A stretch of DNA of 64,000 nucleotides. It comes from Myxococcales bacterium (lineage in GTDB: Bacteria > Myxococcota_A > UBA9160 > UBA4427). Below, piece after piece: positions 19,133-54,953 of the stretch (the stretch's first letter is position 1; each line of letters starts with the position of its first letter). The position numbers and the translations under genes were made by a program. The DNA lies in assembly GCA_014240165.1 (NCBI GenBank), contig JAAZXM010000006.1, positions 54,708 to 118,707 of the forward strand, in the 5' to 3' direction. Under the pieces are notes generated by a model. It did no database searches. It was not told the origin of the DNA and saw nothing but the letters and a program-made list of their open reading frames with translations.

Positions 19133-19383
19133 ATCCGAAGGCCGTCCCGGACCACGCGAACCATCGGCAAATGGCCCGCAAACCCCGCTGATCCGCGGCT
19201 CAAAGCGCGTTCGAAAAGGCCCAACTCGGGTGTTCCGATGAACTTCCAACCGAGTTTGCTCAACGCCCGCGCCCTAAGCAGCAAGAATCGAAAACGAAAC
19301 TAACGAGATCGGCCCGCATGGCCGATACTTGGGGGGAGAGCGATCGACCCGGTAAGCGGGTTTCCGTGCCCGAAAGAGGAAAA

Positions 19384-20511
19384 ATGCATCCGCACACCGT
19401 GCTCTTCGTCGACGATGAGCCCAATATCCTGAAAGCCCTCCAGCGCATTCTCCGCAACGAGCGGATGAATGTCCTCACAGCATCCAATGCCGAAGAGGCG
19501 CTCAATATCCTCGGGCACACCGAGGCCCAGGTGGTGGTCTCCGACCAGGACATGCCCGAGATGAGCGGCGTGGAATTGCTTGCGCGCGTGCGCGACCACC
19601 ACCCCGCCACCATTCGCATGATGCTCACGGGCTTTACGGCGATGGACGTCGCGGTGGAAGCCATCAACCGCGGCGAAATTTTCCGGCTGATCACCAAGCC
19701 CTGGAATGACGAAGAACTCAAGATCATCCTCCGCCAGGCCTTCGATCACTACGACCTCAAACACGAGATCCGGCGACTGAACCAGGTCACCCGCACCCAG
19801 AACTTCAGTCTCCAGGACATGAACAAGAGTCTCGAGGCCAAGGTTCGCGAGCGCACCCGGCAACTCGACGAGAAGAACCACGAACTGCGAACCGCCTATA
19901 TCCAGACGATCCGGGCGCTGGCCGAGGCCATCGATGCCAAGGATACCTATACCCGCGGCCATTCCGAGCGAGTCGCGGTCTACGCCTCTCGAATCGCCCG
20001 CAAGATGAAACTCGAGACGCCTCTGATCGAGCGCGTGTACTTCGCGGGACTCCTCCACGATGTGGGCAAGATCGGCATTCCCGACGCCATCATCACGAAA
20101 CCCGATCGCCTGGACGACGAGGAGTACGAAGAGATCAAGAAGCACCCGGAAATCGGCGCAAAGATCCTCGAACCCGTCGAGTTCCTCCGCCAAATCGTGC
20201 CCTGCGTACGTCATCATCACGAATGGTTCGACGGCTCCGACCGGGGCTACCCCGAAAGGCTCGTCTCTCACGCCATTCCCCTGCCCTCTCGGATCATCCT
20301 GGTGGCCGACACCGCCGAGGCCATGACGAGCGATCGCCCCTACCGAAAGGGGCTGCCCCTGAATCGTGTGACTGCGGAGCTTCGAAAATTCTCAGGCAGC
20401 CAATTCGACCCTGTCGTGGTGGACGCTTTCCTTGAACTCCTCGAAGAAGAAGGAGACGGCTTCCTCTCGAAGAGCCAGAAATTTGATATTTACGAGTTCA
20501 TTGAGGGCTGA
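19384..20511 (+). CDS. Response regulator with HD-GYP c-di-GMP phosphodiesterase domain (RpfG-like)
   Basis: Receiver domain (VLFVDDEPNIL...VVSDQDMPEMSG). HD-GYP motifs LLHDVGKIGIP and HHEWFDGSDRGYP. GAGGAAAA Shine-Dalgarno sequence before ATG 19384. Confidence 0.9.
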   Translation: MHPHTVLFVDDEPNILKALQRILRNERMNVLTASNAEEALNILGHTEAQVVVSDQDMPEMSGVELLARVRDHHPATIRMMLTGFTAMDVAVEAINRGEIFRLITKPWNDEELKIILRQAFDHYDLKHEIRRLNQVTRTQNFSLQDMNKSLEAKVRERTRQLDEKNHELRTAYIQTIRALAEAIDAKDTYTRGHSERVAVYASRIARKMKLETPLIERVYFAGLLHDVGKIGIPDAIITKPDRLDDEEYEEIKKHPEIGAKILEPVEFLRQIVPCVRHHHEWFDGSDRGYPERLVSHAIPLPSRIILVADTAEAMTSDRPYRKGLPLNRVTAELRKFSGSQFDPVVVDAFLELLEEEGDGFLSKSQKFDIYEFIEG

Positions 20512-20531
20512 TCCGCACTCCGGGGAACGAC

Positions 20532-21572
20532 ATGCAGCGAACGAAGGAAAGCAAGCGACACCTCGAGAACCGCTCCCGACTGGAAGGTTTGGGATTCGGC
20601 TCCGATTCCATCCTGATGAGCGATCCCAAGCTCTTCTTGGACAGCGCCTTCCTGGCCATTGTGACCGCTGAGTTCCAACAGGAACTCGGCGAGGACTGCA
20701 GCCGCCAGGCCCTGCTGGAGATCGGTCGCCATCACGGGCTCTGCGATGCGATTCGAACGCTCTCCGCCGCATCCACCGGAGACGGAGATGCCGGATTTCC
20801 GCCCGCTCAAACCGGGCCCCACCTCGCCATGCAATTTGCCTCGCCACCTCGGCCCGCACAGGAGTTCGTGCTCCAGGGCAGTTGGCCCGAATGCCACGAG
20901 GCCCGAGCTCGACTCTCCCGCCTCACCCATACGGACGGACCCAGCTGTTTTCTGAGCGCGGGCTATACCGCCGGCTGGCTGGCGGAGATCTACGACGCCG
21001 AGGTCGAGGTGGTGGAGACCGTATGTGAGGCCAGCGGAGGCGAGACGTGTCGTTTCGAGGCCCGCATCATGGCTGCCGGCGCGTGCCGAACGGAAACGCC
21101 CCAGCCGAGCCCAGAGAAAGACGCCACCCCGCCCATGGAATTCCCCATCGAGTCTTTCGGTCCCGAAATCACCGACTCCGGCCACCACCCGGACTCGCCC
21201 TCACCCCTTGATCCCGAGGAAGATGCAGTCCAGGTCTGGGGTCCCGTGATGGTGCTTCCCTTTTCCGACCCGGAAGTCGCCGAAACAACCCTGTTGGAAC
21301 TCGAAATGGATTCCCTGAGCAGCGAAATCGGAGCCGTTGTCATCGACCTCAGGGGTCGCTCCCTGGATACGAATCGCGAGCAGGTTCGCCTCGAACGCAT
21401 TCTCAAAGTCATCGCGCGATGGCAGGCCCAGGTGGTCTTTGCGGGGGTTTCGCGCGCGACCGAAGCCACCCTTCAGCGCTTTGACTCGGGATGCCTGGTC
21501 AGCCGGAAGAAGCTGTCCGAGGCGATTGCCGCGGCTTTCCAGATTGCCGAAGCCCAGAGCCACAGCGTCTAG
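20532..21572 (+). CDS. V4R (XylR-N-like) sensor domain fused to a STAS-like domain
   Basis: V4R signature SCFLSAGYTAGWLAEIYDAEVEVVETVCEASGGETCRFE. The C-terminal RsbR-type STAS pattern is VWGPVMVLPFSD...GAVVIDLRGRSLDTN...VVFAGVS. Confidence 0.7.
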   Translation: MQRTKESKRHLENRSRLEGLGFGSDSILMSDPKLFLDSAFLAIVTAEFQQELGEDCSRQALLEIGRHHGLCDAIRTLSAASTGDGDAGFPPAQTGPHLAMQFASPPRPAQEFVLQGSWPECHEARARLSRLTHTDGPSCFLSAGYTAGWLAEIYDAEVEVVETVCEASGGETCRFEARIMAAGACRTETPQPSPEKDATPPMEFPIESFGPEITDSGHHPDSPSPLDPEEDAVQVWGPVMVLPFSDPEVAETTLLELEMDSLSSEIGAVVIDLRGRSLDTNREQVRLERILKVIARWQAQVVFAGVSRATEATLQRFDSGCLVSRKKLSEAIAAAFQIAEAQSHSV

Positions 21573-21601
21573 GCGTAGTCCAGCCTCGACCGAGACTCAG
21601 C

Positions 21602-23095
21602 ATGTCTTTGCAGCAAAGCGAAATCAAGCAATCGGATACGCTCGCGGAAACCGGCCTTCCCCGCGTCCTCGTAAGCTTGTACCGAACGCGTTTTCACGGC
21701 GTGCTGGCCCTGGAAAATCACGCCCAGCGCCGACGCTTCTCCTTCTACAAGGGCTCGCCCGCACTCGTAGAATCCACTGCGTCCGCGGACACCCTCGAGC
21801 GGCACCTGGTGTCGGCCAACCTGCTGAGCGCAGAGGACTACCGCCCCGTCGCTGAATACGCCGCTCGGAAGGGCGTCGGCGAGGCCACCGCGCTTCTGGC
21901 GCTGAATCGGGTGGACCCCCTGCAATTGCTCGAGATCCTGCGCCTGCGGGTCCGCAATTTGCTCTTGGATTCCATGGACTGGCAAAGCGGTCGCTACACA
22001 CTCTTCCCCGAGAGCCTGGAGAAAATGCCCCAGCAGTCGGACTTGGAACCCCTTCTCTGGGATCCGCCCCCGATCATCCACCAGGGCCTCATTCGCCAGA
22101 TGACGGTGGACCAAATGCTGGACGCCCTCGCCCCCCAGCTTCAGCGCTTCCCCCAAACCAGGCCCGACTTCAACCCGGCTCTGGGCCGACTCCAACTCGA
22201 CAGCCACCATGCAAAGCTGCTCTCATGTTTGGCCAAGGACCGGCCCCTTGCGGACAGTCTCGGACCGAACCTGACGTCGCCCCCGCTGCTCGCCGCGCTG
22301 TGGGTTCTCGATGCCTTGGGGTCGATCGAATTTCGTGATCACTGCCCCGCGAACAACGCGATCGATTTCGAGGCAGAGATCGAATTGATCCAGAAGAGCG
22401 ACGCCGACAAGGCCGATGCGCCCCAATCCGCGCCCTCCACGGCGGCCGCTGCGGACGCCCAGGAGGCCGACACCCTGCGGGCGGAAGTCGATGAACTCCG
22501 GGCCTTGCTGGGCACGGCAAGCCACTACGAAATCCTCGGCGTCGGGGAGGACGCCTCGTCCGGGGCTATCCAGAAGGCCTACTTCGGTGCCGCCAAACGT
22601 TTTCATCCCGACACCCTGGCCCGCCTGGGCCTGCAGGAGATCAAGCGCGAAGCGTCGGAAGTCTTTTCGCGCGTTGCCGAGGCTTTCGACGTCCTCTCGG
22701 ATTCCAATACTCGGCACGACTACGATGCCCCGCGTCGAGGCGAGTTCTCCAACTCCGATGCCCAGCGCGTCGCCCAGGCCGAAACCATGTACCGCAAGGG
22801 CGAGATCCTCCTTCGCATGGGCGATTTCAAGAATGCCCTGGATTTCCTGGCCCCGGCCGTGGAGGTCTGGCCCGAAGAGGCTGCGTACCAGAGTGCCCTG
22901 GGCTGGGCGCTCTACAAGCAGGCGGCATCGGATCCAAAATCCGCGCGCGAGCACCTCACCCGAGCCGTGGAACTCGACCCCGACGATGCCGTCGCTCATT
23001 TTCGGCTGGGGATGGTATTCCGCGCCCTGGGCGAAAACCGAGCCGCGACGGATCTGCTCGAGCGTGCGAAGGAACTCGAGCCCCCGGCCGAATAA
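21602..23095 (+). CDS. DUF4388-like N-terminal domain + J domain (HPD) + TPR repeats
   Basis: J domain SHYEILGVGEDAS...AAKRFHPD...DVLSDSNTRHDYD. C-terminal TPR-like repeats. The N-terminus resembles DUF4388 (LPRVLVSLYRTRFHGVLAL...WQSGRYTLFP). Confidence 0.75.
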   Translation: MSLQQSEIKQSDTLAETGLPRVLVSLYRTRFHGVLALENHAQRRRFSFYKGSPALVESTASADTLERHLVSANLLSAEDYRPVAEYAARKGVGEATALLALNRVDPLQLLEILRLRVRNLLLDSMDWQSGRYTLFPESLEKMPQQSDLEPLLWDPPPIIHQGLIRQMTVDQMLDALAPQLQRFPQTRPDFNPALGRLQLDSHHAKLLSCLAKDRPLADSLGPNLTSPPLLAALWVLDALGSIEFRDHCPANNAIDFEAEIELIQKSDADKADAPQSAPSTAAAADAQEADTLRAEVDELRALLGTASHYEILGVGEDASSGAIQKAYFGAAKRFHPDTLARLGLQEIKREASEVFSRVAEAFDVLSDSNTRHDYDAPRRGEFSNSDAQRVAQAETMYRKGEILLRMGDFKNALDFLAPAVEVWPEEAAYQSALGWALYKQAASDPKSAREHLTRAVELDPDDAVAHFRLGMVFRALGENRAATDLLERAKELEPPAE

Positions 23096-23116: not shown

Positions 23117-24127
23117 TCAGTTCCCGCCGGCCTTCAGCAAGCCCGCCGCCGCCGCATTGGGCTCCACTCCCAGACGGCCTGGCTGGACAATGTCTTCGCG
23201 CCAGGTGCTCAAGCGGAGGGCGAAAGGCACTCCCCCGGCTCCCCGGTAGAAATAACGCGCCCGGACGTCCCCCACCCGGCTATAGGGGCCCTCCAGCCCG
23301 TATGCCCGCGCTTCCGCGTCAAAGCGCGCGAAGAGCCCGACCTCTGCGGGTGACAACTTCAACTCACCCACTACCACGCCCCGGGGCAGCGCGTAGAGCG
23401 CCGAGAGATTCGGATCCGAGAAAGCCGCGCCCCCGGCCACGCGCGCACCGAGTTTCCGTACTTCGTCGGTGGTGCGTTGCATGATCGATGCCCCCAGGAC
23501 CGGGTGGGCCGCATAGCCCAGGGCATGCCCGAGTTCGTGCAGCACGGTCCCGAGAAGTTGGTCGTCTCCCAGGGCCACGGGCCTGCCCAGAGCGTCCCGC
23601 TCCTGCCGGTTCAAGTAGATCGAAGCCCAGCGGATCTCCGCCGGAACCCGACCCTCCCGAAGCACGACCCGCCCGCCTTCGGTCGCGATGGCGCAATCCG
23701 CCAGGGCGTTGCCCGAACCCGTGGGCGAACCCGGGCCCGCCGACACGAAGCGCAGTTCGAGGCGAGCCTCGGCGGGCTCGACCTCACGGAAAGCGACCCC
23801 AATGCCGGCGCTGGACCAGGCCTTCAAGGCCAAGCGCAGAATCCGCAATTCCCGCGGATCCGCATCCGGCGGAAGCGAAACCGGGATGGGCTGCTGGACC
23901 GACCAGCGGCAGAGAAAGAGCACCAGGCCCTCGCCATAGGGTGCCATATGGGGCGGCGAATCCGAGAGCCTGGAGTCTCGCACCACCGGCAGGCTGCCCT
24001 GCTCTTCGGAGAGATCAGTGACTTCCCAGCCTCCGAGGGACGGGGCGCAGCCCGGCACCGTGACGAGCACGAGCAGGCCGAACCCGAAGGCTTCAAGAGT
24101 ACGACTCAAGGGACGACGGTTCGGCAT
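23117..24127 (-). CDS. Zinc metalloprotease lipoprotein (HExxH, metzincin-like)
   Basis: Lipobox LVTVPGC and VLHELGHALGYAAH. Start taken at ATG 24127 inside the 23117..24319 ORF. Confidence 0.7.
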   Translation of the reverse strand: MPNRRPLSRTLEAFGFGLLVLVTVPGCAPSLGGWEVTDLSEEQGSLPVVRDSRLSDSPPHMAPYGEGLVLFLCRWSVQQPIPVSLPPDADPRELRILRLALKAWSSAGIGVAFREVEPAEARLELRFVSAGPGSPTGSGNALADCAIATEGGRVVLREGRVPAEIRWASIYLNRQERDALGRPVALGDDQLLGTVLHELGHALGYAAHPVLGASIMQRTTDEVRKLGARVAGGAAFSDPNLSALYALPRGVVVGELKLSPAEVGLFARFDAEARAYGLEGPYSRVGDVRARYFYRGAGGVPFALRLSTWREDIVQPGRLGVEPNAAAAGLLKAGGN

Positions 24128-24143
24128 TCTGGGGATCTTCCGT

Positions 24144-26111
24144 TCAGCGCACGATCCGGAGCGGCCCGGGATCGGCATCGCTTTCAAAGCCGAAGATCTG
24201 AGCGTAGAAATAAAGTTCGCCTTCCAGGGCGGCGCGGATATTCGCCGCCTTGCGAAAGCCGTGTTGCTCGCCCTCGAAAGCCACGTAGGCGTGGGGGATC
24301 CCGCGAAGAGCAAGTGCATCCACCATGGCCTGGGCCTGATTGGGCGGAACGATGGCGTCCTCGAGCCCCTGGAAGAAGGCGATGGGGCAGTTCAGACGCT
24401 CGGGAAAATGAATCGGGGAACGTGCCCGGTAGGTTTCACGCGCCTCGGGATAGGGCCCGACCAGCCCATCGGTGTAGCGTGCCTCGAATTTATGCGTGTC
24501 CCGAGCAAGCGCCTCCAGGTCTCCGATCCCGTAATGACTGGCGCCGGCTCGAAACGTGTCGTGGAAGGTGAGCGCGCAAAGCGTCGTGTACCCCCCGGCG
24601 CTCCCGCCGCTGATGGCCAGGCGGTGGGCGTCCACCCGTCCGTCTGCCGCCAGGGCCTCGGCGGCCGCGACACAATCCTCGACATCCACCACCCCCCACT
24701 CGCCGCGGAGGAGTTCGCGGTACGCCCGCCCGTATCCCGTCGAGCCGCCATAGTCCACGTCCACCACCGCGATGCCGCGGCTGACCCAATATTGAATGCG
24801 AAGGTCCAGGGCCGTAGAAGCCGCCGCGGTGGGCCCCCCATGGCTCTTCACCAACAACGGGGGCCGCTCCGCAGCCGGCGGCTGTCCGTCCCGGCGCCGA
24901 GGCGCATAGAGCCAGCCATGGGATCGCCGACCGCCCGCAGATTCGAATTCGAAGGCCTCCGGGGCGACCAGGGTCGAAGCTTCGAAATCCAGGCTCGAAC
25001 CGCGCCGGAGTTCACGCGGGCGGCCGTTGGCGAGGTCCAGAGCGACCACCGCCGAAGGCCGATCCGCGGCCGAAGCGATGAAACAGACCCGCTCCCCTTC
25101 GACTTGAATCCCCTCGTAGCCGCTATAGGGCAACTGCAGGTCTTCGAGCCTTCCCGAGAGGCAATCGAGGCGGCCCAAGCGACTTCGCCCCCCAACCCCA
25201 TGGACGCAGAGGATCGCTTCCTCGGACAGGAACGCGTAGCGCGAGAGACCGAAAACCCATTGCGGGCCCGCGAACTCCTCGGATCGGCCGCATAGGGCCG
25301 CCACTTCCCCATCCGCCCGCAGCGCGTACAGGTTCCACCAGCCGCTCCGATCCGAAATGAAGGTCAAGCGGCCACCCGGAGAGAACCGAGGCTGAAAAAT
25401 CGACTCGGACGCTCCCCCCGCGACGGTCCGTGCCTCGCCCGCGGGCCCCTCCCGGCTCCATTTTTGAATGAAGAGCGTCGTGCCATCCCAAGGCATATTC
25501 GGGTGCTGCCAGGCCGTATAGGCCAGCATCGAGCCATCCGGAGAAAACACCGGAAAGCTGTAGAAATCGTATCCCTCGGCAATCACCCGGGGCGCCTCCA
25601 CCTTTGGCGGAAGCCCTTGCTCGGGCAGGCGGAACACAACCAGGCGATTTTCGGGTTCCCGCCCCTCTCGGGGCCGCTCCTCCACGGCCACCAGCGCGTC
25701 TCGTCCGGGGGTCACCGCGAAATCGGCGTAGCGTGCACCCGGGGGCGAAAGCGGCGCGGAGCGGCCATCCCGGCTGGCATGGATTCGCTGATCGGCGAAA
25801 TCGACATAGAAGAGCCATTCCCCCGCCACCGCGTAGTCGCCCCCGCCGTACTCGTGCACCCGGGTACGCACGTTGGCCGAGGTGGGCGTGACCTCCTGGG
25901 AACCCGGCTGGGCAGCTGCAAAAGCCTCGCGGGCGAGCATCACCTGCTGGCGACCCCCCTCCGCCGGCCGCCCCTCGAGCCAGTAGACCGCACCCTCGCG
26001 AATCCGCGGCTGGGATAGACGCAGCGAGGCCTCGGCCAGACCCGCGGCGCGAATCGGGGAGGACCAACTTCCGTAGGCGGAACTCAAGATCGCCGCTCCC
26101 GGACGGGCCAC
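24144..26111 (-). CDS. S9 family serine peptidase (prolyl oligopeptidase/dipeptidyl peptidase type, beta-propeller + alpha/beta hydrolase)
   Basis: Catalytic GGSAGGYT (GxSxGG), GLEDAIVP (Asp) and GEQHGF (His). Confidence 0.85.
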   Translation of the reverse strand: MARPGAAILSSAYGSWSSPIRAAGLAEASLRLSQPRIREGAVYWLEGRPAEGGRQQVMLAREAFAAAQPGSQEVTPTSANVRTRVHEYGGGDYAVAGEWLFYVDFADQRIHASRDGRSAPLSPPGARYADFAVTPGRDALVAVEERPREGREPENRLVVFRLPEQGLPPKVEAPRVIAEGYDFYSFPVFSPDGSMLAYTAWQHPNMPWDGTTLFIQKWSREGPAGEARTVAGGASESIFQPRFSPGGRLTFISDRSGWWNLYALRADGEVAALCGRSEEFAGPQWVFGLSRYAFLSEEAILCVHGVGGRSRLGRLDCLSGRLEDLQLPYSGYEGIQVEGERVCFIASAADRPSAVVALDLANGRPRELRRGSSLDFEASTLVAPEAFEFESAGGRRSHGWLYAPRRRDGQPPAAERPPLLVKSHGGPTAAASTALDLRIQYWVSRGIAVVDVDYGGSTGYGRAYRELLRGEWGVVDVEDCVAAAEALAADGRVDAHRLAISGGSAGGYTTLCALTFHDTFRAGASHYGIGDLEALARDTHKFEARYTDGLVGPYPEARETYRARSPIHFPERLNCPIAFFQGLEDAIVPPNQAQAMVDALALRGIPHAYVAFEGEQHGFRKAANIRAALEGELYFYAQIFGFESDADPGPLRIVR

Positions 26112-26135
26112 CCCCGGCTGAGATCCCTTGCAACT

Positions 26136-26687
26136 TTATTCATCGCGAGGAAGAGATCCAGCGCTGGAGTCGGAGGTGGACGCTTCCGCCGGCGCGCCCG
26201 CGGAAACCGACTGCGAAGCGGTTGCCACCCCGGGCATGGCCCGGGCGAGCCGGTCGAGCAGGAAACGGTTGGCAAAGAGCGCCCACAGAACGAAGGGCAC
26301 GGCATCGGTCATCACCAGCGCGGGAAAATAACGGGCCATGGACTCTCCCGTGCGTCCCTCCTGACCAAAGCTCACCCAGGACCAATAACTCAGGGCCACA
26401 TGGCTCAAGAAGATGACGAAAGTGCCTACGGCCAGCCCGATCAGGCGCCGCTTCAGCGCCAGGCCCGGCGTCACGAGCATGAGCCCCAAAAAGGGGATGA
26501 AGCCTACGAATCGATCCCGCACCAGCCCCGCACTCACGTGGGTCACGCCCATCTCCTGCAAGAGGGGAAAGGCCAGCCGGCGAAAGATGTCGTGGTAGGT
26601 CTCCAAGCCACCATGCGTCCACCACCAGACCAGCGGAGCCGTGATGGCGATGAACTCAAGGAGAATCAGGAAGGGCCTGATCTTCAC
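26136..26687 (-). CDS. Polytopic membrane protein, probable exosortase-associated partner
   Basis: About 5 hydrophobic helices. GTG start at 26687 preceded by AAGGTGG. Overlaps the exosortase gene by 32 nt. Confidence 0.55.
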   Translation of the reverse strand: MKIRPFLILLEFIAITAPLVWWWTHGGLETYHDIFRRLAFPLLQEMGVTHVSAGLVRDRFVGFIPFLGLMLVTPGLALKRRLIGLAVGTFVIFLSHVALSYWSWVSFGQEGRTGESMARYFPALVMTDAVPFVLWALFANRFLLDRLARAMPGVATASQSVSAGAPAEASTSDSSAGSLPRDE

Positions 26688-27357
26688 GCTGCACCACCTT
26701 GACGATCCAGAGCATCCAGACCGAGGTAATCATCGCGATCATGGTTGCCTGCCAGAAATAAAGATGCATGAACTCGAATGCTTCGGCCCAGTAGCGCCCC
26801 ACCAGGATCAGACCCGCGATTCGCACCACGTTGAAAAGATAGATCAAGGGACATCCCAGAAGCAGGCCCACTCCGCGCTTGGCCCAACTGGTGGGAAAAG
26901 CCAGAACCGCCGCCGCGAAGATCAACATCTCGTAGATCCCCGTGCATTCGTCGATGATCTTGACCACGAATTGACCGAACCAGATCATCTTCCCATCGAG
27001 GCGAACATCGTCGCTGAAGAGCGCGAAGACACCGTACTCGATGGCCGCAGTGGCGTGAATGAAAGCTTGGATGATGCCATCGCTGTGCTCGACCATGAGG
27101 GGATACCCAAGCGAGGCCAGGGCCAGGTAGGGCAGGAAGAGGCCAATGAAGCGATAGGCCGGGTTCTCCCAAACCGCCTTCAGACGCTGGATCAGGCTCG
27201 GCCGGGACGGGGGCGGGGAGGACGGGGACGGGGAGGACGGGGGCGGGGAGGACGGGGGCGGGGTGGCCGGGGGCGGAGAGATCTCGCCCGAGCCCGATTC
27301 GGACCCCTCGTCGCTTGCCGGGCCCTCCTCGGGGCGATCTCCGTTGGTCTCTGTCAT
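26656..27357 (-). CDS. Exosortase/archaeosortase-family transpeptidase with Pro/Ser-rich N-terminal extension
   Basis: Family motifs in order: IIDECTGIYEML (Cys), FNVVRIAGL (Arg) and EFMHLYFW (His) in a polytopic membrane protein. The subclass cannot be assigned by eye. Confidence 0.7.
   Translation of the reverse strand: MTETNGDRPEEGPASDEGSESGSGEISPPPATPPPSSPPPSSPSPSSPPPSRPSLIQRLKAVWENPAYRFIGLFLPYLALASLGYPLMVEHSDGIIQAFIHATAAIEYGVFALFSDDVRLDGKMIWFGQFVVKIIDECTGIYEMLIFAAAVLAFPTSWAKRGVGLLLGCPLIYLFNVVRIAGLILVGRYWAEAFEFMHLYFWQATMIAMITSVWMLWIVKVVQREDQALPDSP
27204..27276. repeat. 15-nt tandem repeat (about 5 copies, GGAGGACGGGGGCGG on + strand) encoding (PPPSS)n on the minus strand
   Basis: Read directly. 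It is in frame within the exosortase N-terminus (PPPATPPPSSPPPSSPSPSSPPPS). The + strand carries many G4-G5 runs. Confidence 0.85.
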
Positions 27358-27417
27358 GGCGTTGGCCGATCATCTTAGGGGTTCCGACCGGGGCCGTGCC
27401 ACGCTGGGCCGGCTTCC

Positions 27418-29883
27418 TCAACGCGCGCGGGTACAGGATCGTGGGCGAACGCCTTTCAGCCGCGGCGCGGAAGAGTCCGAAGTCGGGCCCAAACCCAGAT
27501 CGAAAACGGCGGCTCCGTCACGGCCAGTCCAGGCCAAGGGCACCCCGGTCGCCTCGAAACGAGCAAGGGCCTCGGGATGGGGCAGTCGTGACCCGCCGTG
27601 GCAGGGCGCGGAAAGCAGCAACCAACGCGGCGCAACCGCGGAGAGGAACGCCGGGGTCGACGATCCGCGGCTCCCGTGGTGGCCCACCTTCAAAAGATCC
27701 GCCGCGAGGTCGACGCCGGACGCCTGCAAGGCTGTTTCGACCTTGGCCCCGATATCCCCGGTCAGAAGAATCCGCCACCCGGCCAATTCGAAGCGGAAAA
27801 CCAGGGATCGCGCGTTGGCCGGAGCGAGCGGTCCCTCTCGGGGTGGCCAGAGAGGAGTGGCCCGCAGCGCCCCAATGCGCCGTGGCGGTGCCCCTGCCCC
27901 CATCTCGACGATTGCCACCCCAAGGCGCCCGGCACTCCGCCGAAGCCCAGCGAAATTCGGGTCGTTCGCGCTCCGCCAGGGCAGCCAGATCTCGGATACC
28001 GGCAACGCATCGAGAACGCTGATCGCGCCGCCGCGATGATCGATATCGCCATGGGTGATCACAAGGGCATCCAAATGATCGACACCGAGTGCAGCCAGGG
28101 CCGGGACCACGGTGCTTCGCCCCAGGTCCAGGCCACCGGGGATCGCTCGTGCGGCATCCACCAGCACGGCCGAGCGCGCGCCTTGCAGGAGCAGCGCATC
28201 ACCCTGCCCCACATCGAACATGACGAGCCGCGGCGGACTGGGTACCCGATCCGCCGGAGGTGCCGTGTGGAGCCACAGCACCGCCGAGAGCGCGATCACC
28301 AGCACCGCGGAAGTTCGGGCCATTCGGCAAGCTTGGACTGCGAACACCCCGGCCACCCCCAGCGCAATGCCATGGGGACGACCGCGCACCCCGCTTCCCG
28401 TAGCGAATAGCTCGGACAGCCCGTCGACCGCAGCCAGGGTCAGGGCCGCAATGCTGTGGCTGATCGCGAGACACCCCTCCGCCACCGGGCCCTCGAAACC
28501 ACTGGCTGCGGTGGCGAGGAGCGAGGCCGGAAGAAGAAAAGCGCTCGTCCAAGGGATCGCAAGCACGTTGACGAGCACCCCGGGTGCGCCCGCGGCGAGT
28601 CCGCGCCAGGCCAATAGGGGCGCCGTGGAAATCAGGGCCAACGCGGAGAGGTGGACGAGGAGCCGTACCCGAGTGATGACCCGGCCCAGACGATGCGCCT
28701 GGGGCTCGGACTCCGAAACCGGACGACGCGCAGCCATCAGCAGCGCTCCGGTGGCCGCAAAGGAGAGTTGCGGCCCCAATTCAAAGAGCGACTGAGGCGC
28801 CGCCAATCCCACCCCGAGCCAGGCGATGGAGAGCAGGTGGCCGAGGGGAAGGGAACGGCCCAGCCTCAGCGCGACCAGCCCTGCGGCCAGGAAGATCAGC
28901 GCACGCTGCACCGGCACTCCGAAACCCACAAGTTGTGCATATCCGAGCGCCGCCACCCCGGCCCCGACACCCGCCACCAGACGAAGGTCGCGGCCGTGAT
29001 CACCGCACGCGCTCAGCAGGAAACGCAACCCCGCGTAGATCAGGCCCGCGACCAGGGCCAGATGGAGACCGGAGATCGCAAGCAGGTGGGCGATCCCCAA
29101 GCGCGCAAAAGCGTCGCGTGTCGAAATCCCGAGCCCCGCGCGATCACCCACGCCCAGGGCGGCAAGCAGAGCGCCGGATTCAGGGGACGCGCCGGCACCC
29201 ACGCCGCTTCGCAGCCGGGCGGAAAGGCGTGCGCGGAGCGATTCGACCCGCGCCCCAAGCCCGGGGGCAATCTCGGGGCCCCCGGAAGCAGCGCGAACAC
29301 GAACCAATAAGCCGATATCGAGCAAACTCGCCCGGCCCCCGATGCCCCGGCGTTGCCAACGCCGCTCGGGATGCAGGCGACCCGGGTTCCGAAGACCCCC
29401 GAGCGGCGCGACGCGCACCCGAGCCCGAATCCGATCCCCGATCTGCAAGCTCGACAGGGCCCGGGCCTCATCCGAGCCCGCGCGATGCTGGACAACGAGG
29501 CGCGGAGGCAGCGCGCGTCCCTCGCCGGGCAGCGCGCCCGGTGAGGCGACCTCGACCGGGGCACAGAGTTCCACCGAACGCAGCAACCCGCTCGCGTCGG
29601 CGGCGCAGACCCAAGCCTCGAGGCTCAGGGTCTCGGGCGCCGTGGGCACCGAAAGCGCGGCCGCGTCGAGCCGGGCAGCGAGCCCCGCCAGCCCGGCCGC
29701 AAAAGCCACGCCCCATGCGAATCCGAAGCGAAGGGCTGGCAATCGCCGGCTGAGGAGCGCGCCCGCGAAACACGCGAGGGCCAGGCCCAAGGCCTTGGGG
29801 CCATCGATGAGCGGCCACGTGAACTCAGCGGCAATAACGCCCATCACGTGGCCAAGCGCCAGGCTCGGCAACCCAAAGAACAA
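27418..29883 (-). CDS. comEC: DNA internalisation-related competence protein ComEC/Rec2
   Basis: Polytopic competence domain plus a C-terminal metallo-beta-lactamase domain (MFDVGQGDALLL...ITHGDIDHRGG...VGHHGS). TTG start. Confidence 0.85.
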   Translation of the reverse strand: MFFGLPSLALGHVMGVIAAEFTWPLIDGPKALGLALACFAGALLSRRLPALRFGFAWGVAFAAGLAGLAARLDAAALSVPTAPETLSLEAWVCAADASGLLRSVELCAPVEVASPGALPGEGRALPPRLVVQHRAGSDEARALSSLQIGDRIRARVRVAPLGGLRNPGRLHPERRWQRRGIGGRASLLDIGLLVRVRAASGGPEIAPGLGARVESLRARLSARLRSGVGAGASPESGALLAALGVGDRAGLGISTRDAFARLGIAHLLAISGLHLALVAGLIYAGLRFLLSACGDHGRDLRLVAGVGAGVAALGYAQLVGFGVPVQRALIFLAAGLVALRLGRSLPLGHLLSIAWLGVGLAAPQSLFELGPQLSFAATGALLMAARRPVSESEPQAHRLGRVITRVRLLVHLSALALISTAPLLAWRGLAAGAPGVLVNVLAIPWTSAFLLPASLLATAASGFEGPVAEGCLAISHSIAALTLAAVDGLSELFATGSGVRGRPHGIALGVAGVFAVQACRMARTSAVLVIALSAVLWLHTAPPADRVPSPPRLVMFDVGQGDALLLQGARSAVLVDAARAIPGGLDLGRSTVVPALAALGVDHLDALVITHGDIDHRGGAISVLDALPVSEIWLPWRSANDPNFAGLRRSAGRLGVAIVEMGAGAPPRRIGALRATPLWPPREGPLAPANARSLVFRFELAGWRILLTGDIGAKVETALQASGVDLAADLLKVGHHGSRGSSTPAFLSAVAPRWLLLSAPCHGGSRLPHPEALARFEATGVPLAWTGRDGAAVFDLGLGPTSDSSAPRLKGVRPRSCTRAR

Positions 29884-29970: not shown

Positions 29971-30384
29971 TTATTGCAGGCGACGCCGATGAGAACCGAG
30001 CTCGGGATTCCTCAGCCGTCGCAAGTAGGCGTTCAGCACCTTGACGATCTCGTCGAGTTTCTGGACTTCGTCGCCGAAATCCGTGAGCAATTGATCCACC
30101 ACCCGGGCCTGGCGAAAACCGCCTACGGGCGCATCTCTCTGCACCGCCCCTATGCTGAAGGCGAGTGCAACGCCATCCAGGACGAGGCCGGCTGGATGCT
30201 CGGGAACGCCCTCCAGCTGTTGCTGGACCTGGCGGGCCAGGGTTCCCGATGACTCGCGCGGAATCCCTCTGCGAATGAGTTCGAGTTCGATGCGATCGGT
30301 TCGGATCAACTCACTCGGGTCGGTTTCCGCGGACTTCTCCGCCGACGCCGAACCTGAAACTTTGCGCCAATTCGTACGTGCCAT
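29971..30384 (-). CDS. Hypothetical 137-aa protein (sigma-54-dependent by promoter prediction)
   Basis: ORF with a GAGGGGGA Shine-Dalgarno sequence 7 nt before the ATG, and GC-rich third positions. No domain recognised. Confidence 0.6.
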   Translation of the reverse strand: MARTNWRKVSGSASAEKSAETDPSELIRTDRIELELIRRGIPRESSGTLARQVQQQLEGVPEHPAGLVLDGVALAFSIGAVQRDAPVGGFRQARVVDQLLTDFGDEVQKLDEIVKVLNAYLRRLRNPELGSHRRRLQ

Positions 30385-54380: not shown

Positions 54381-54953
54381 TCATCCGCCGTCGCGCGGAA
54401 TATCCTTTCGCACACCGAAATCCGGCGGCAGGTTCAGGATCTCGTTCGGAAAGGCCTCCACGAGAAATTCAACCACGTCGCGAACCGAGATCACCGCCAC
54501 GGGGCAGCCTCGGACGTTCACCACGGGCACGTGTCGGAAACCGCCAACCGACATCATGTTGAGCACCCAAGCCACCCGTGCATCCGCTTGCAGGTGCTCG
54601 GGGTCGGCGCTCATGACTTCTTTGAGCGGGGTCTCCGCAGGATTTCGCCCGCGATTGATCACTCGGAGCAGGATATCCCGCTCGGTAAAGATGCCGAGCA
54701 GGGGCGAGCCCGCGCTCCCATCCTTGGTGATCAGAACCACCCCACTATGCTCGGACTGCATGGCCCGCATCGCCTCGCTCGTCGGCGCGAGTTCGGCAAA
54801 GATCAGCGGCGATCGCGTACTCAGAACTGTGACTGGTTCCTGGAGCAAATTGGTATCAAACGCGCGCGGGCGCCGAATTCGGTCATCATCAAAATAGGCT
54901 TCGTCGCTTCTCATTGATATCGAAGGATCCGTTCCTCGTGTTAATCCAGACAA
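54381..54953 (-). CDS. CBS-domain pair protein
   Basis: Two CBS-like units (GVVLITKDG...GIFTERDIL; FRHVPVVN...ISVRDVVEF). Alternative start at 54914. Confidence 0.75.
   Translation of the reverse strand: MSGLTRGTDPSISMRSDEAYFDDDRIRRPRAFDTNLLQEPVTVLSTRSPLIFAELAPTSEAMRAMQSEHSGVVLITKDGSAGSPLLGIFTERDILLRVINRGRNPAETPLKEVMSADPEHLQADARVAWVLNMMSVGGFRHVPVVNVRGCPVAVISVRDVVEFLVEAFPNEILNLPPDFGVRKDIPRDGG

Follow-up and report, generated by a model that had tools for sequence, protein, structure and literature searches.

A short exosortase H-like enzyme and its overlapping membrane protein partner in uncultured Myxococcota

A 64-kb window of DNA from a Myxococcales bacterium (the whole stretch analyzed here, positions 54,708 to 118,707 of contig JAAZXM010000006.1) encodes a short exosortase, called Xrt below, and a small polytopic membrane protein, in two overlapping genes. 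The reading we favor, and consider probable rather than assured, is that the two genes form a translationally coupled cassette, in which a short exosortase at the edge of the XrtH class is paired with a four-helix partner, the clients are IPTL-like proteins encoded elsewhere, and the neighboring genes are unrelated. The original prediction for this DNA had seen the pair as part of a five-gene string, wedged between a ComEC gene and the genes of two secreted peptidases. The features of the pair itself are listed first.

26656-27357, minus strand: exosortase (Xrt), 233 amino acids (aa); PF09721 at 45.4 bits (cutoff 25.7), TIGR04178 at 66.1 bits (cutoff 23)
26136-26687, minus strand: polytopic membrane partner, 183 aa; remote homolog of NF041730, unmatched in direct Pfam and NCBIfam scans
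26656-26687, minus strand: overlap of 32 nucleotides (nt) between the Xrt and partner genes, read directly from the sequence
26694-26699, minus strand: Shine-Dalgarno-like AGGTGG, 6 nt upstream of the GTG start of the partner gene at 26687
27205-27280, minus strand: 15-nt tandem repeat, 5.1 copies, reported by Tandem Repeats Finder inside the Xrt N-terminal tail

Conservation of the exosortase-partner pair

The survey comprised 80 loci from species-representative genomes and 80 from metagenomes, whose open reading frames (ORFs) were searched with hidden Markov models (HMMs) of the window proteins; individual loci are cited below by L numbers. The partner gene lies directly downstream of the Xrt gene in 77 of the 80 species loci, and two of the three misses fall at contig ends. 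Partner-bearing loci span records labeled Myxococcota, Deltaproteobacteria, Zixibacteria, and Ignavibacteria, and an overlap of exactly 32 nt recurs across phyla, in 45 of the 77 loci. When the flanking ORFs were clustered all against all, no third gene emerged that is kept beyond the clade level. Because the partner alone is widely conserved next to Xrt, with no third gene, the unit under selection is taken to be the Xrt-partner pair.

Three apparent candidates for a third gene, seen in 58, 43, and 30 loci, were rejected as shadow ORFs that overlap the Xrt gene, the partner gene, or a neighboring S9 peptidase gene. A single locus (L068, 9502-10182, minus strand) has a partner homolog upstream of Xrt on the opposite strand, in divergent orientation.

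The 32-nt overlap, taken with the Shine-Dalgarno-like AGGTGG just upstream of the partner start, suggests that translation of Xrt and partner is coupled. One representative, P0290 (288 aa), joins the catalytic half of an Xrt (residues 4-113) to a full partner domain (residues 122-281). This fusion supports a physical association of Xrt with its partner, although a frameshift artifact in the overlap could yield the same product.

Class of the exosortase

Judged by its sequence, Xrt is a genuine member of the exosortase/archaeosortase superfamily, as the original prediction had recognized: its scores to PF09721 and TIGR04178 exceed the respective cutoffs, and its polytopic core carries a Cys/Arg/His triad. 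Cys138 (in the motif IIDECTG), Arg179 (FNVxRI), and His198 (FMHLYFWQ) are invariant in an alignment of 28 homologs, and these three residues correspond to the proposed catalytic triad of the exosortase family (bioRxiv 10.1101/2023.06.07.544157). The core, about 170 residues long, follows a variable cytoplasmic N-terminal tail of about 60 residues with Pro, Ser, and acidic residues. The tail is of low complexity, hypervariable in both length and sequence, and unalignable among homologs; the tandem repeat noted above (90% matches) encodes a run of (SPPPS)n within it. The Pfam exosortase match covers positions 102-252 of the 254 in the profile, while the first 100 or so positions are absent from Xrt. 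An AlphaFold2 model, with a predicted local distance difference test (pLDDT) score of 79, has five long helices and a three-stranded sheet; no structural relative was found in the PDB.

The subclass, which the original prediction had been unable to assign by eye, was addressed by running the NCBIfam Xrt models. XrtH (TIGR04177; cutoff 86) comes out best, with 94.8 bits. With so small a margin, placement of Xrt in the known XrtH subclass is marginal. The other subclass models score below their own cutoffs: ArtB 94.5 bits (cutoff 150), XrtX 81.5 (170), XrtF 48.8 (90), and XrtA 17.1 (208). More distant members of the Xrt family score from 87 to 112 bits on the XrtH model. Public annotations disagree in the same way, using "exosortase H", "archaeosortase B", or a generic name.

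The membrane partner and its superfamily

The original prediction described the 183-aa protein as not EpsI-like and possibly a member of an exosortase-associated membrane protein family. It has no EpsI match, and the second suggestion also fares well, by an indirect route. Searched directly against Pfam and NCBIfam, the partner has no match even at E <= 10, and all 34 of its word-indexed homologs are labeled "hypothetical". An exhaustive profile search of 1.84 billion representatives collected 265 members of the partner family, counted as 50% cluster representatives. The partner alignment is marked by an N-terminal helix ending in W-x-W, by the motif (I/V)P(F/Y)-h10-TPG-x4-R(R/K), and by D-A-x-P-F-V-L-W. 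The AlphaFold2 model of the window protein (pLDDT 85) has four long helices and a disordered C-terminal tail, and no relative of this model was found in the PDB. In the first search, the most distant partner homolog found was encoded together with its Xrt in the midst of P450 and polyketide synthase genes.

The weakest listed matches of the partner profile search form a sister family, A3, reported from Hydrogenedentes and others. A3 proteins have the same motifs as the partner family and carry in addition an insertion behind the first helix, about 30 residues long and ranging from 20 to 40 among members. The profile of the partner family (A1) aligns with that of A3 by hhalign with 98.9% probability and E 3e-17 over 131 columns. 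A3-type proteins in turn match NF041730 ("exosortase H-associated membrane protein"; cutoff 35 bits) at 17-33.1 bits, their E values lying between 4e-8 and 4e-3. NF041730 is the sole family to recur among 102 members of the superfamily, with 11 matches. A3-type genes, like the window partner gene, overlap an exosortase gene at its end, and the exosortase in question, of 329-359 aa, scores 73 bits on the XrtH model. We conclude, through this transitive chain and with no direct match, that the partner belongs, in diverged form, to the superfamily of XrtH-associated membrane proteins. By the same chain the exosortase H-associated family is linked to about 265 membrane proteins (again as 50% cluster representatives) that are at present unannotated, or "hypothetical". 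Both the partner and many of the enzymes straddle the model cutoffs, which is why annotation pipelines overlook them.

In the Hydrogenedentes-type loci L089 (7042-8579) and L090 (6925-8579), only the C-terminal 100 residues or so of the long exosortase match XrtH. Some A3-type proteins carry a precomputed match to PF28117.

The partner might instead be a degenerate, catalytically dead paralog of the exosortase, so that the pair would be a heterodimer of enzyme and pseudoenzyme. A weak local hhalign match between residues 66-98 of the partner and residues 147-178 of Xrt, between the catalytic Cys and Arg, points that way, but it reaches only 25% probability over 32 columns. No exosortase model matches the partner, and the number and order of helices differ between the two structural models. 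We give this idea next to no credence.

Sorting tails in related loci

A hydropathy scan of the 64-kb window found no protein ending in a motif followed by a transmembrane (TM) helix and a basic tail, and tail HMMs of the IPTL, PEP, and P[ST]MS types, built from relatives, gave at best 7.3 bits on its six-frame segments. The window thus holds no PEP-CTERM-like substrate, just as the original prediction had observed. Clients in this genome are presumably encoded elsewhere.

Tail-bearing genes do occur beside Xrt in relatives. Zixibacteria-type loci encode secreted proteins of 150-310 aa with endings such as VPTLTEWGLILLV...RRKR. IPTL-type tail genes stand directly upstream of Xrt on the same strand in L074 and L075 (two genes each), L076, L077, L080, and L087, and in L064 one lies downstream of Xrt in convergent orientation. 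The IPTL-CTERM model TIGR04174 (cutoff 20.5) recognizes the L077 tail at 23.6 bits, and the L064 tail falls just below, at 19.8. In about 1.2 Mb of loci, all strong tail-HMM matches lie within about 2.4 kb of an Xrt gene.

A variant tail characterizes one Myxococcota-type subclade (L051, L162, L163, and L169). Here proteins of 250-464 aa end in xP[ST]MSxxGFAAAAALMVLAVGYAFRRRF, and their genes are convergent with Xrt and 0.1-1.5 kb downstream of it. For the tails of L162 and L163, TIGR04174 is the sole NCBIfam match, at 16-18 bits over the full model length; the L169 tail has no NCBIfam match, and the L051 tail was detected by a local tail HMM, at 71.6 bits. Members of this subclade have a LuxR-type regulator gene in place of the partner gene. 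The near-invariant 32-nt overlap elsewhere and this partner-less, client-linked subclade offer a natural comparison for partner function.

Both arrangements coexist in one Myxococcota metagenome-assembled genome, ETNP8_MAG_7 (JASMKC01), whose two Xrt paralogs are found with a partner (L056) and without one (L051). The neighbors of the latter are the LuxR-type regulator, a 129-aa secreted protein, and the client with the P[ST]MS tail.

Evidence against the favored reading, and its alternatives

Several findings weigh against the favored reading. As to the enzyme, close orthologs from the same clade score below the XrtH cutoff of 86 bits (P0009 at 84.4 and P0072 at 79.7), and close relatives have ArtB scores comparable to their XrtH scores. 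Because the closest relatives thus score 79.7-84.4 bits, with comparable ArtB scores, the clade is peripheral to canonical XrtH. As to the partner, NF041730 (cutoff 35 bits) has no match at E <= 10 to the window protein or to four distant orthologs, and because one subclade has linked substrates without a partner, the partner is not universally required. As to the clients, neither the window nor about 0.4 Mb of close-clade loci contains a tail-bearing protein, so that the signal read in this organism is an extrapolation. Literature searches found no functional study of any XrtH system, of IPTL-CTERM, or of midcut-by-XrtH. Finally, some of the nearer Myxococcota-type loci have PEP-CTERM proteins instead: directly downstream of the partner in L033, and 4-9 kb away in L023, L031, L032, L035, and L048.

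The PEP-CTERM proteins raise the prospect that the Myxococcota branch that includes the window reads a PEP-CTERM-like signal ([VI]PEPG, TM helix, and basic tail), which would make Xrt an XrtH-shaped enzyme with XrtA-like specificity. The L033 protein is encoded on the same strand as the partner, and proteins of this type come within 10 kb not only in L023, L031, L032, L035, and L048 but also in L109, L122, and L158, with a TIGR02595 score of 21.2 bits against a cutoff of 16. Most of these loci, however, belong to one synteny group in which the genes are three to five genes away, some with opposite-strand genes in between. Only about three independent events remain, a number that chance could produce in genomes with many PEP-CTERM proteins, and the L033 tail, at 14.8 bits, is itself below the cutoff of 16. 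In another Myxococcota-type subclade the tails in tight linkage are IPTL-like, and the XrtA model gives only 17 bits on Xrt. The proximity is too weak to tell from chance; we keep this reading as a rival, and regard it as unlikely.

Alternatively, since neither the window nor any locus of the close clade encodes a tail-bearing protein, this could be an orphan, XrtF-like system with no C-terminally tagged clients. Its target would then be non-canonical, perhaps the partner or else an intermediate of lipid or glycan nature. There are precedents of a kind: surface colonization by Flavobacterium johnsoniae requires XrtF together with the partner encoded next to it, a pair whose substrates are unknown (PMC10936215), while NCBIfam defines a "midcut-by-XrtH" family with an internal signal. 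Set against these are the high conservation of triad and core, the canonical tails linked to Xrt in relatives, and the established knowledge that many-to-one sorting systems as a rule have their client genes at a distance from the sortase gene. An orphan system seems to us very doubtful. The partner was also tried as a midcut substrate and rejected, as it has no match to NF033207 or to any tail HMM (best 7.3 bits).

A more specific proposal applies to the marine Myxococcota clade. Its XrtH-like enzyme could make up, with the diverged partner, an obligate two-subunit sortase, reading a client signal that is neither canonical IPTL nor PEP-CTERM, whether a new type of tail or an internal midcut site, with the partner supplying the binding of substrate or acceptor that long exosortases would carry in a single protein. 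We consider this proposal quite unlikely as stated.

Proposed mechanism

Under the favored reading of a coupled XrtH-type cassette, Xrt and partner would be made in fixed ratio through translational coupling and would assemble in the inner membrane, where the pair probably works as a complex. The complex would recognize clients exported by Sec in which an IPTL-like motif stands immediately before the TM helix and basic tail of the C-terminus; the candidate signal is IPTLxxWG-like, [IVA]P[TS][LM][ST]xx[WG], followed by the TM helix and a tail of Arg and Lys. Xrt would act as an intramembrane Cys/Arg/His endopeptidase or transpeptidase, and by analogy with ArtA and XrtA its active site would cut at the motif, so that the mature protein is released, transferred, or re-anchored at the cell surface. 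From its co-occurrence with Xrt, the gene overlap, and the one fusion, we infer that the partner may contribute binding of the substrate or of an acceptor.

Comparison with known systems

The exosortase H system (TIGR04177, NF041730, TIGR04174) is the closest in composition. Xrt is likewise a short enzyme, with a core of about 160 aa, and its score exceeds the XrtH cutoff. The gene next to it encodes a membrane protein of about 180 aa, remotely homologous to NF041730 through an intermediate family, and in relatives IPTL-type tails are encoded beside the enzyme. The present clade differs in sitting at the edge of the XrtH model, with scores of 80-112 bits around the cutoff of 86 and equal ArtB scores, and in a partner that, in the window, is too diverged for a direct NF041730 match and lacks the insert of about 30 residues found in A3-type relatives. 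The hosts differ as well. Canonical XrtH hosts are beta- and gamma-proteobacteria, whereas the hosts here are uncultured Myxococcota and Zixibacteria-type bacteria, and any clients in the lineage of the window would be unlinked.

Archaeosortase B (TIGR04144, VPXXXP-CTERM) is comparable in length and in bit score (94.5). That score is below the cutoff of 150, the family is archaeal, and no VPXXXP tails were seen. With the XrtA/EpsH-EpsI-PEP-CTERM system, Xrt shares its superfamily, the Cys/Arg/His triad, and presumably the logic of a tripartite C-terminal signal, but the XrtA model (cutoff 208) gives 17 bits, the partner does not resemble EpsI, and the gene map of the 64-kb window contains no exopolysaccharide (EPS) genes.

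The F. johnsoniae XrtF system (Fjoh_1448/1449) resembles the pair in consisting of a small exosortase and an adjacent small polytopic partner outside an EPS locus. Both of its genes give the same colonization phenotype, and its substrates are not obvious (PMC10936215). Xrt scores 48.8 bits on the XrtF model, below the cutoff of 90, and no similarity could be detected between the window partner and the XrtF-associated family. A tblastn search of plasmids with Xrt returned a single find, an unannotated XrtM locus on Methylomonas sp. AM2-LC plasmid CP157006.1 (L088, 5683-6910). There the gene of an XrtM (184 bits) overlaps a downstream polytopic ORF of 226 aa that matches no family, the enzyme-plus-partner layout in another exosortase class; the locus is useful only as an architectural analog.

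The system is thus best described as a peripheral lineage of the known XrtH type in uncultured, apparently marine Myxococcota. It is neither an EPS-type XrtA system nor a new system linked to peptidases or ComEC. What is new is modest: a remote link between an unannotated family of partners and NF041730, a P[ST]MS variant of the tail, and a subclade without the partner. The analysis also extends the XrtH sorting system to uncultured Myxococcota and to Zixibacteria-type bacteria.

Gene neighborhood of the pair

The remaining three genes of the minus-strand run are listed below.

27418-29883, minus strand: ComEC/Rec2 DNA-uptake channel; TIGR00361 at 213 bits (cutoff 190), with domains DUF4131, Competence, and MBL
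24144-26111, minus strand: S9 family serine peptidase, with a beta-propeller and an alpha/beta hydrolase domain; PF00326 at 165 bits
23117-24127 (longest ORF 23117-24319), minus strand: M10/metzincin-like putative lipoprotein; PF00413 at 22.3 bits, below the cutoff of 24, with the motif HELGHALG

The spacings are exactly as the original prediction gave them: the successive genes, from ComEC onward, are separated by 60 nt, by the 32-nt overlap, and by gaps of 24 and 16 nt. The last gap refers to an internal ATG at 24127 of the M10-like ORF, which yields a 336-aa protein; if the longest ORF were used instead, its start at 24319 would make it overlap the S9 gene by 176 nt. The description of the two peptidases as secreted holds in part. 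From the ATG at 24127 the M10-like protein has a lipoprotein-like N-terminus (LLVLVTVPGC), but a signal peptide is not evident, by eye, in the S9 peptidase. In the M10-like motif HELGHALGYAAH the spacing is one residue longer than in the metzincin pattern HExxHxxGxxH. The short gaps of the run contain no terminator-like or promoter-like sites. From this lack of terminator-like sites the five genes may be co-transcribed here, which is not evidence for a shared function.

Could the five genes be one functional module, in which the Xrt pair processes or anchors ComEC and the peptidases, or all five jointly mature a surface or DNA-uptake structure? In favor are the common strand, the tight spacing (60, -32, 24, and 16 nt), the lack of terminator-like or promoter-like sites in between, and a gene order kept in about 15 genomes of related species and in three long metagenome contigs. 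The survey speaks otherwise. Among loci with enough flank to judge, ComEC is near Xrt in 14 of 67, the S9 peptidase in 14 of 53, and UvrC in 10 of 48, with M10-like orthologs in 12 of 45; ComEC is therefore absent from 53 informative loci and the S9 gene from 39. In a neighbor-joining tree of Xrt proteins, all loci with window-like synteny fall in a single clade that includes the window, so that co-occurrence of the S9 peptidase or the metalloprotease with this type of Xrt, which the original prediction had thought worth checking, is confined to one clade and is not general.

Even within that clade the order is broken, by a MoxR/BatA-D operon and by genes for a GDSL lipase, TauE, a PAS kinase, and major facilitator superfamily proteins. 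In L001 and L020, ComEC is 9 kb from Xrt. A 6.2-Mb Myxococcota chromosome has ComEC 9 kb upstream, behind the MoxR/BatA-D operon, and has GDSL lipase, TauE, LysR, pirin, and GST genes between the Xrt pair, the S9 gene, and the M10-like gene. Another genome of the clade encodes a 1528-aa PAS protein between partner and S9 peptidase; overall the S9 gene lies 0.6-5.8 kb from the end of Xrt where GDSL lipase, TauE, or PAS-kinase genes are inserted. The ComEC, S9, and M10-like proteins all lack a sorting tail.

The flanks of the run tell the same story. Because uvrBC and the DnaJ-TPR gene are equally syntenic, the whole block is plain inherited gene order. The genes for the response regulator, the V4R protein, and the DnaJ/TPR protein are as syntenic with the clade as are those for ComEC and the S9 peptidase (L004, L005). 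A five-gene module is, in our judgment, highly improbable. The ComEC, S9, and M10-like genes are unrelated, lineage-specific bystanders and not parts of the sorting cassette. The survey does not support the meaning that the original prediction attached to the wedging of the exosortase between ComEC and the peptidases: the adjacency is not conserved, and the enzyme falls, marginally, in XrtH, which has a defined signal and partner. This is in essence the outcome that the original prediction had named as its refutation. The survey removes a false lead, as ComEC and the two peptidases are not partners of the exosortase.

Two minor observations concern genes at either side of the run. Beyond its end, 19318-23095 on the plus strand encodes the response regulator, with an HD-GYP-like domain, the V4R-domain protein, and the DnaJ/TPR protein. 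Between uvrC and comEC, a 137-aa ORF at 29971-30384 on the minus strand has good coding statistics, and ORFs of 133-134 aa with no Pfam match occupy the same uvrC-comEC position in relatives (L002, 7032-7436; L004, 6899-7300).

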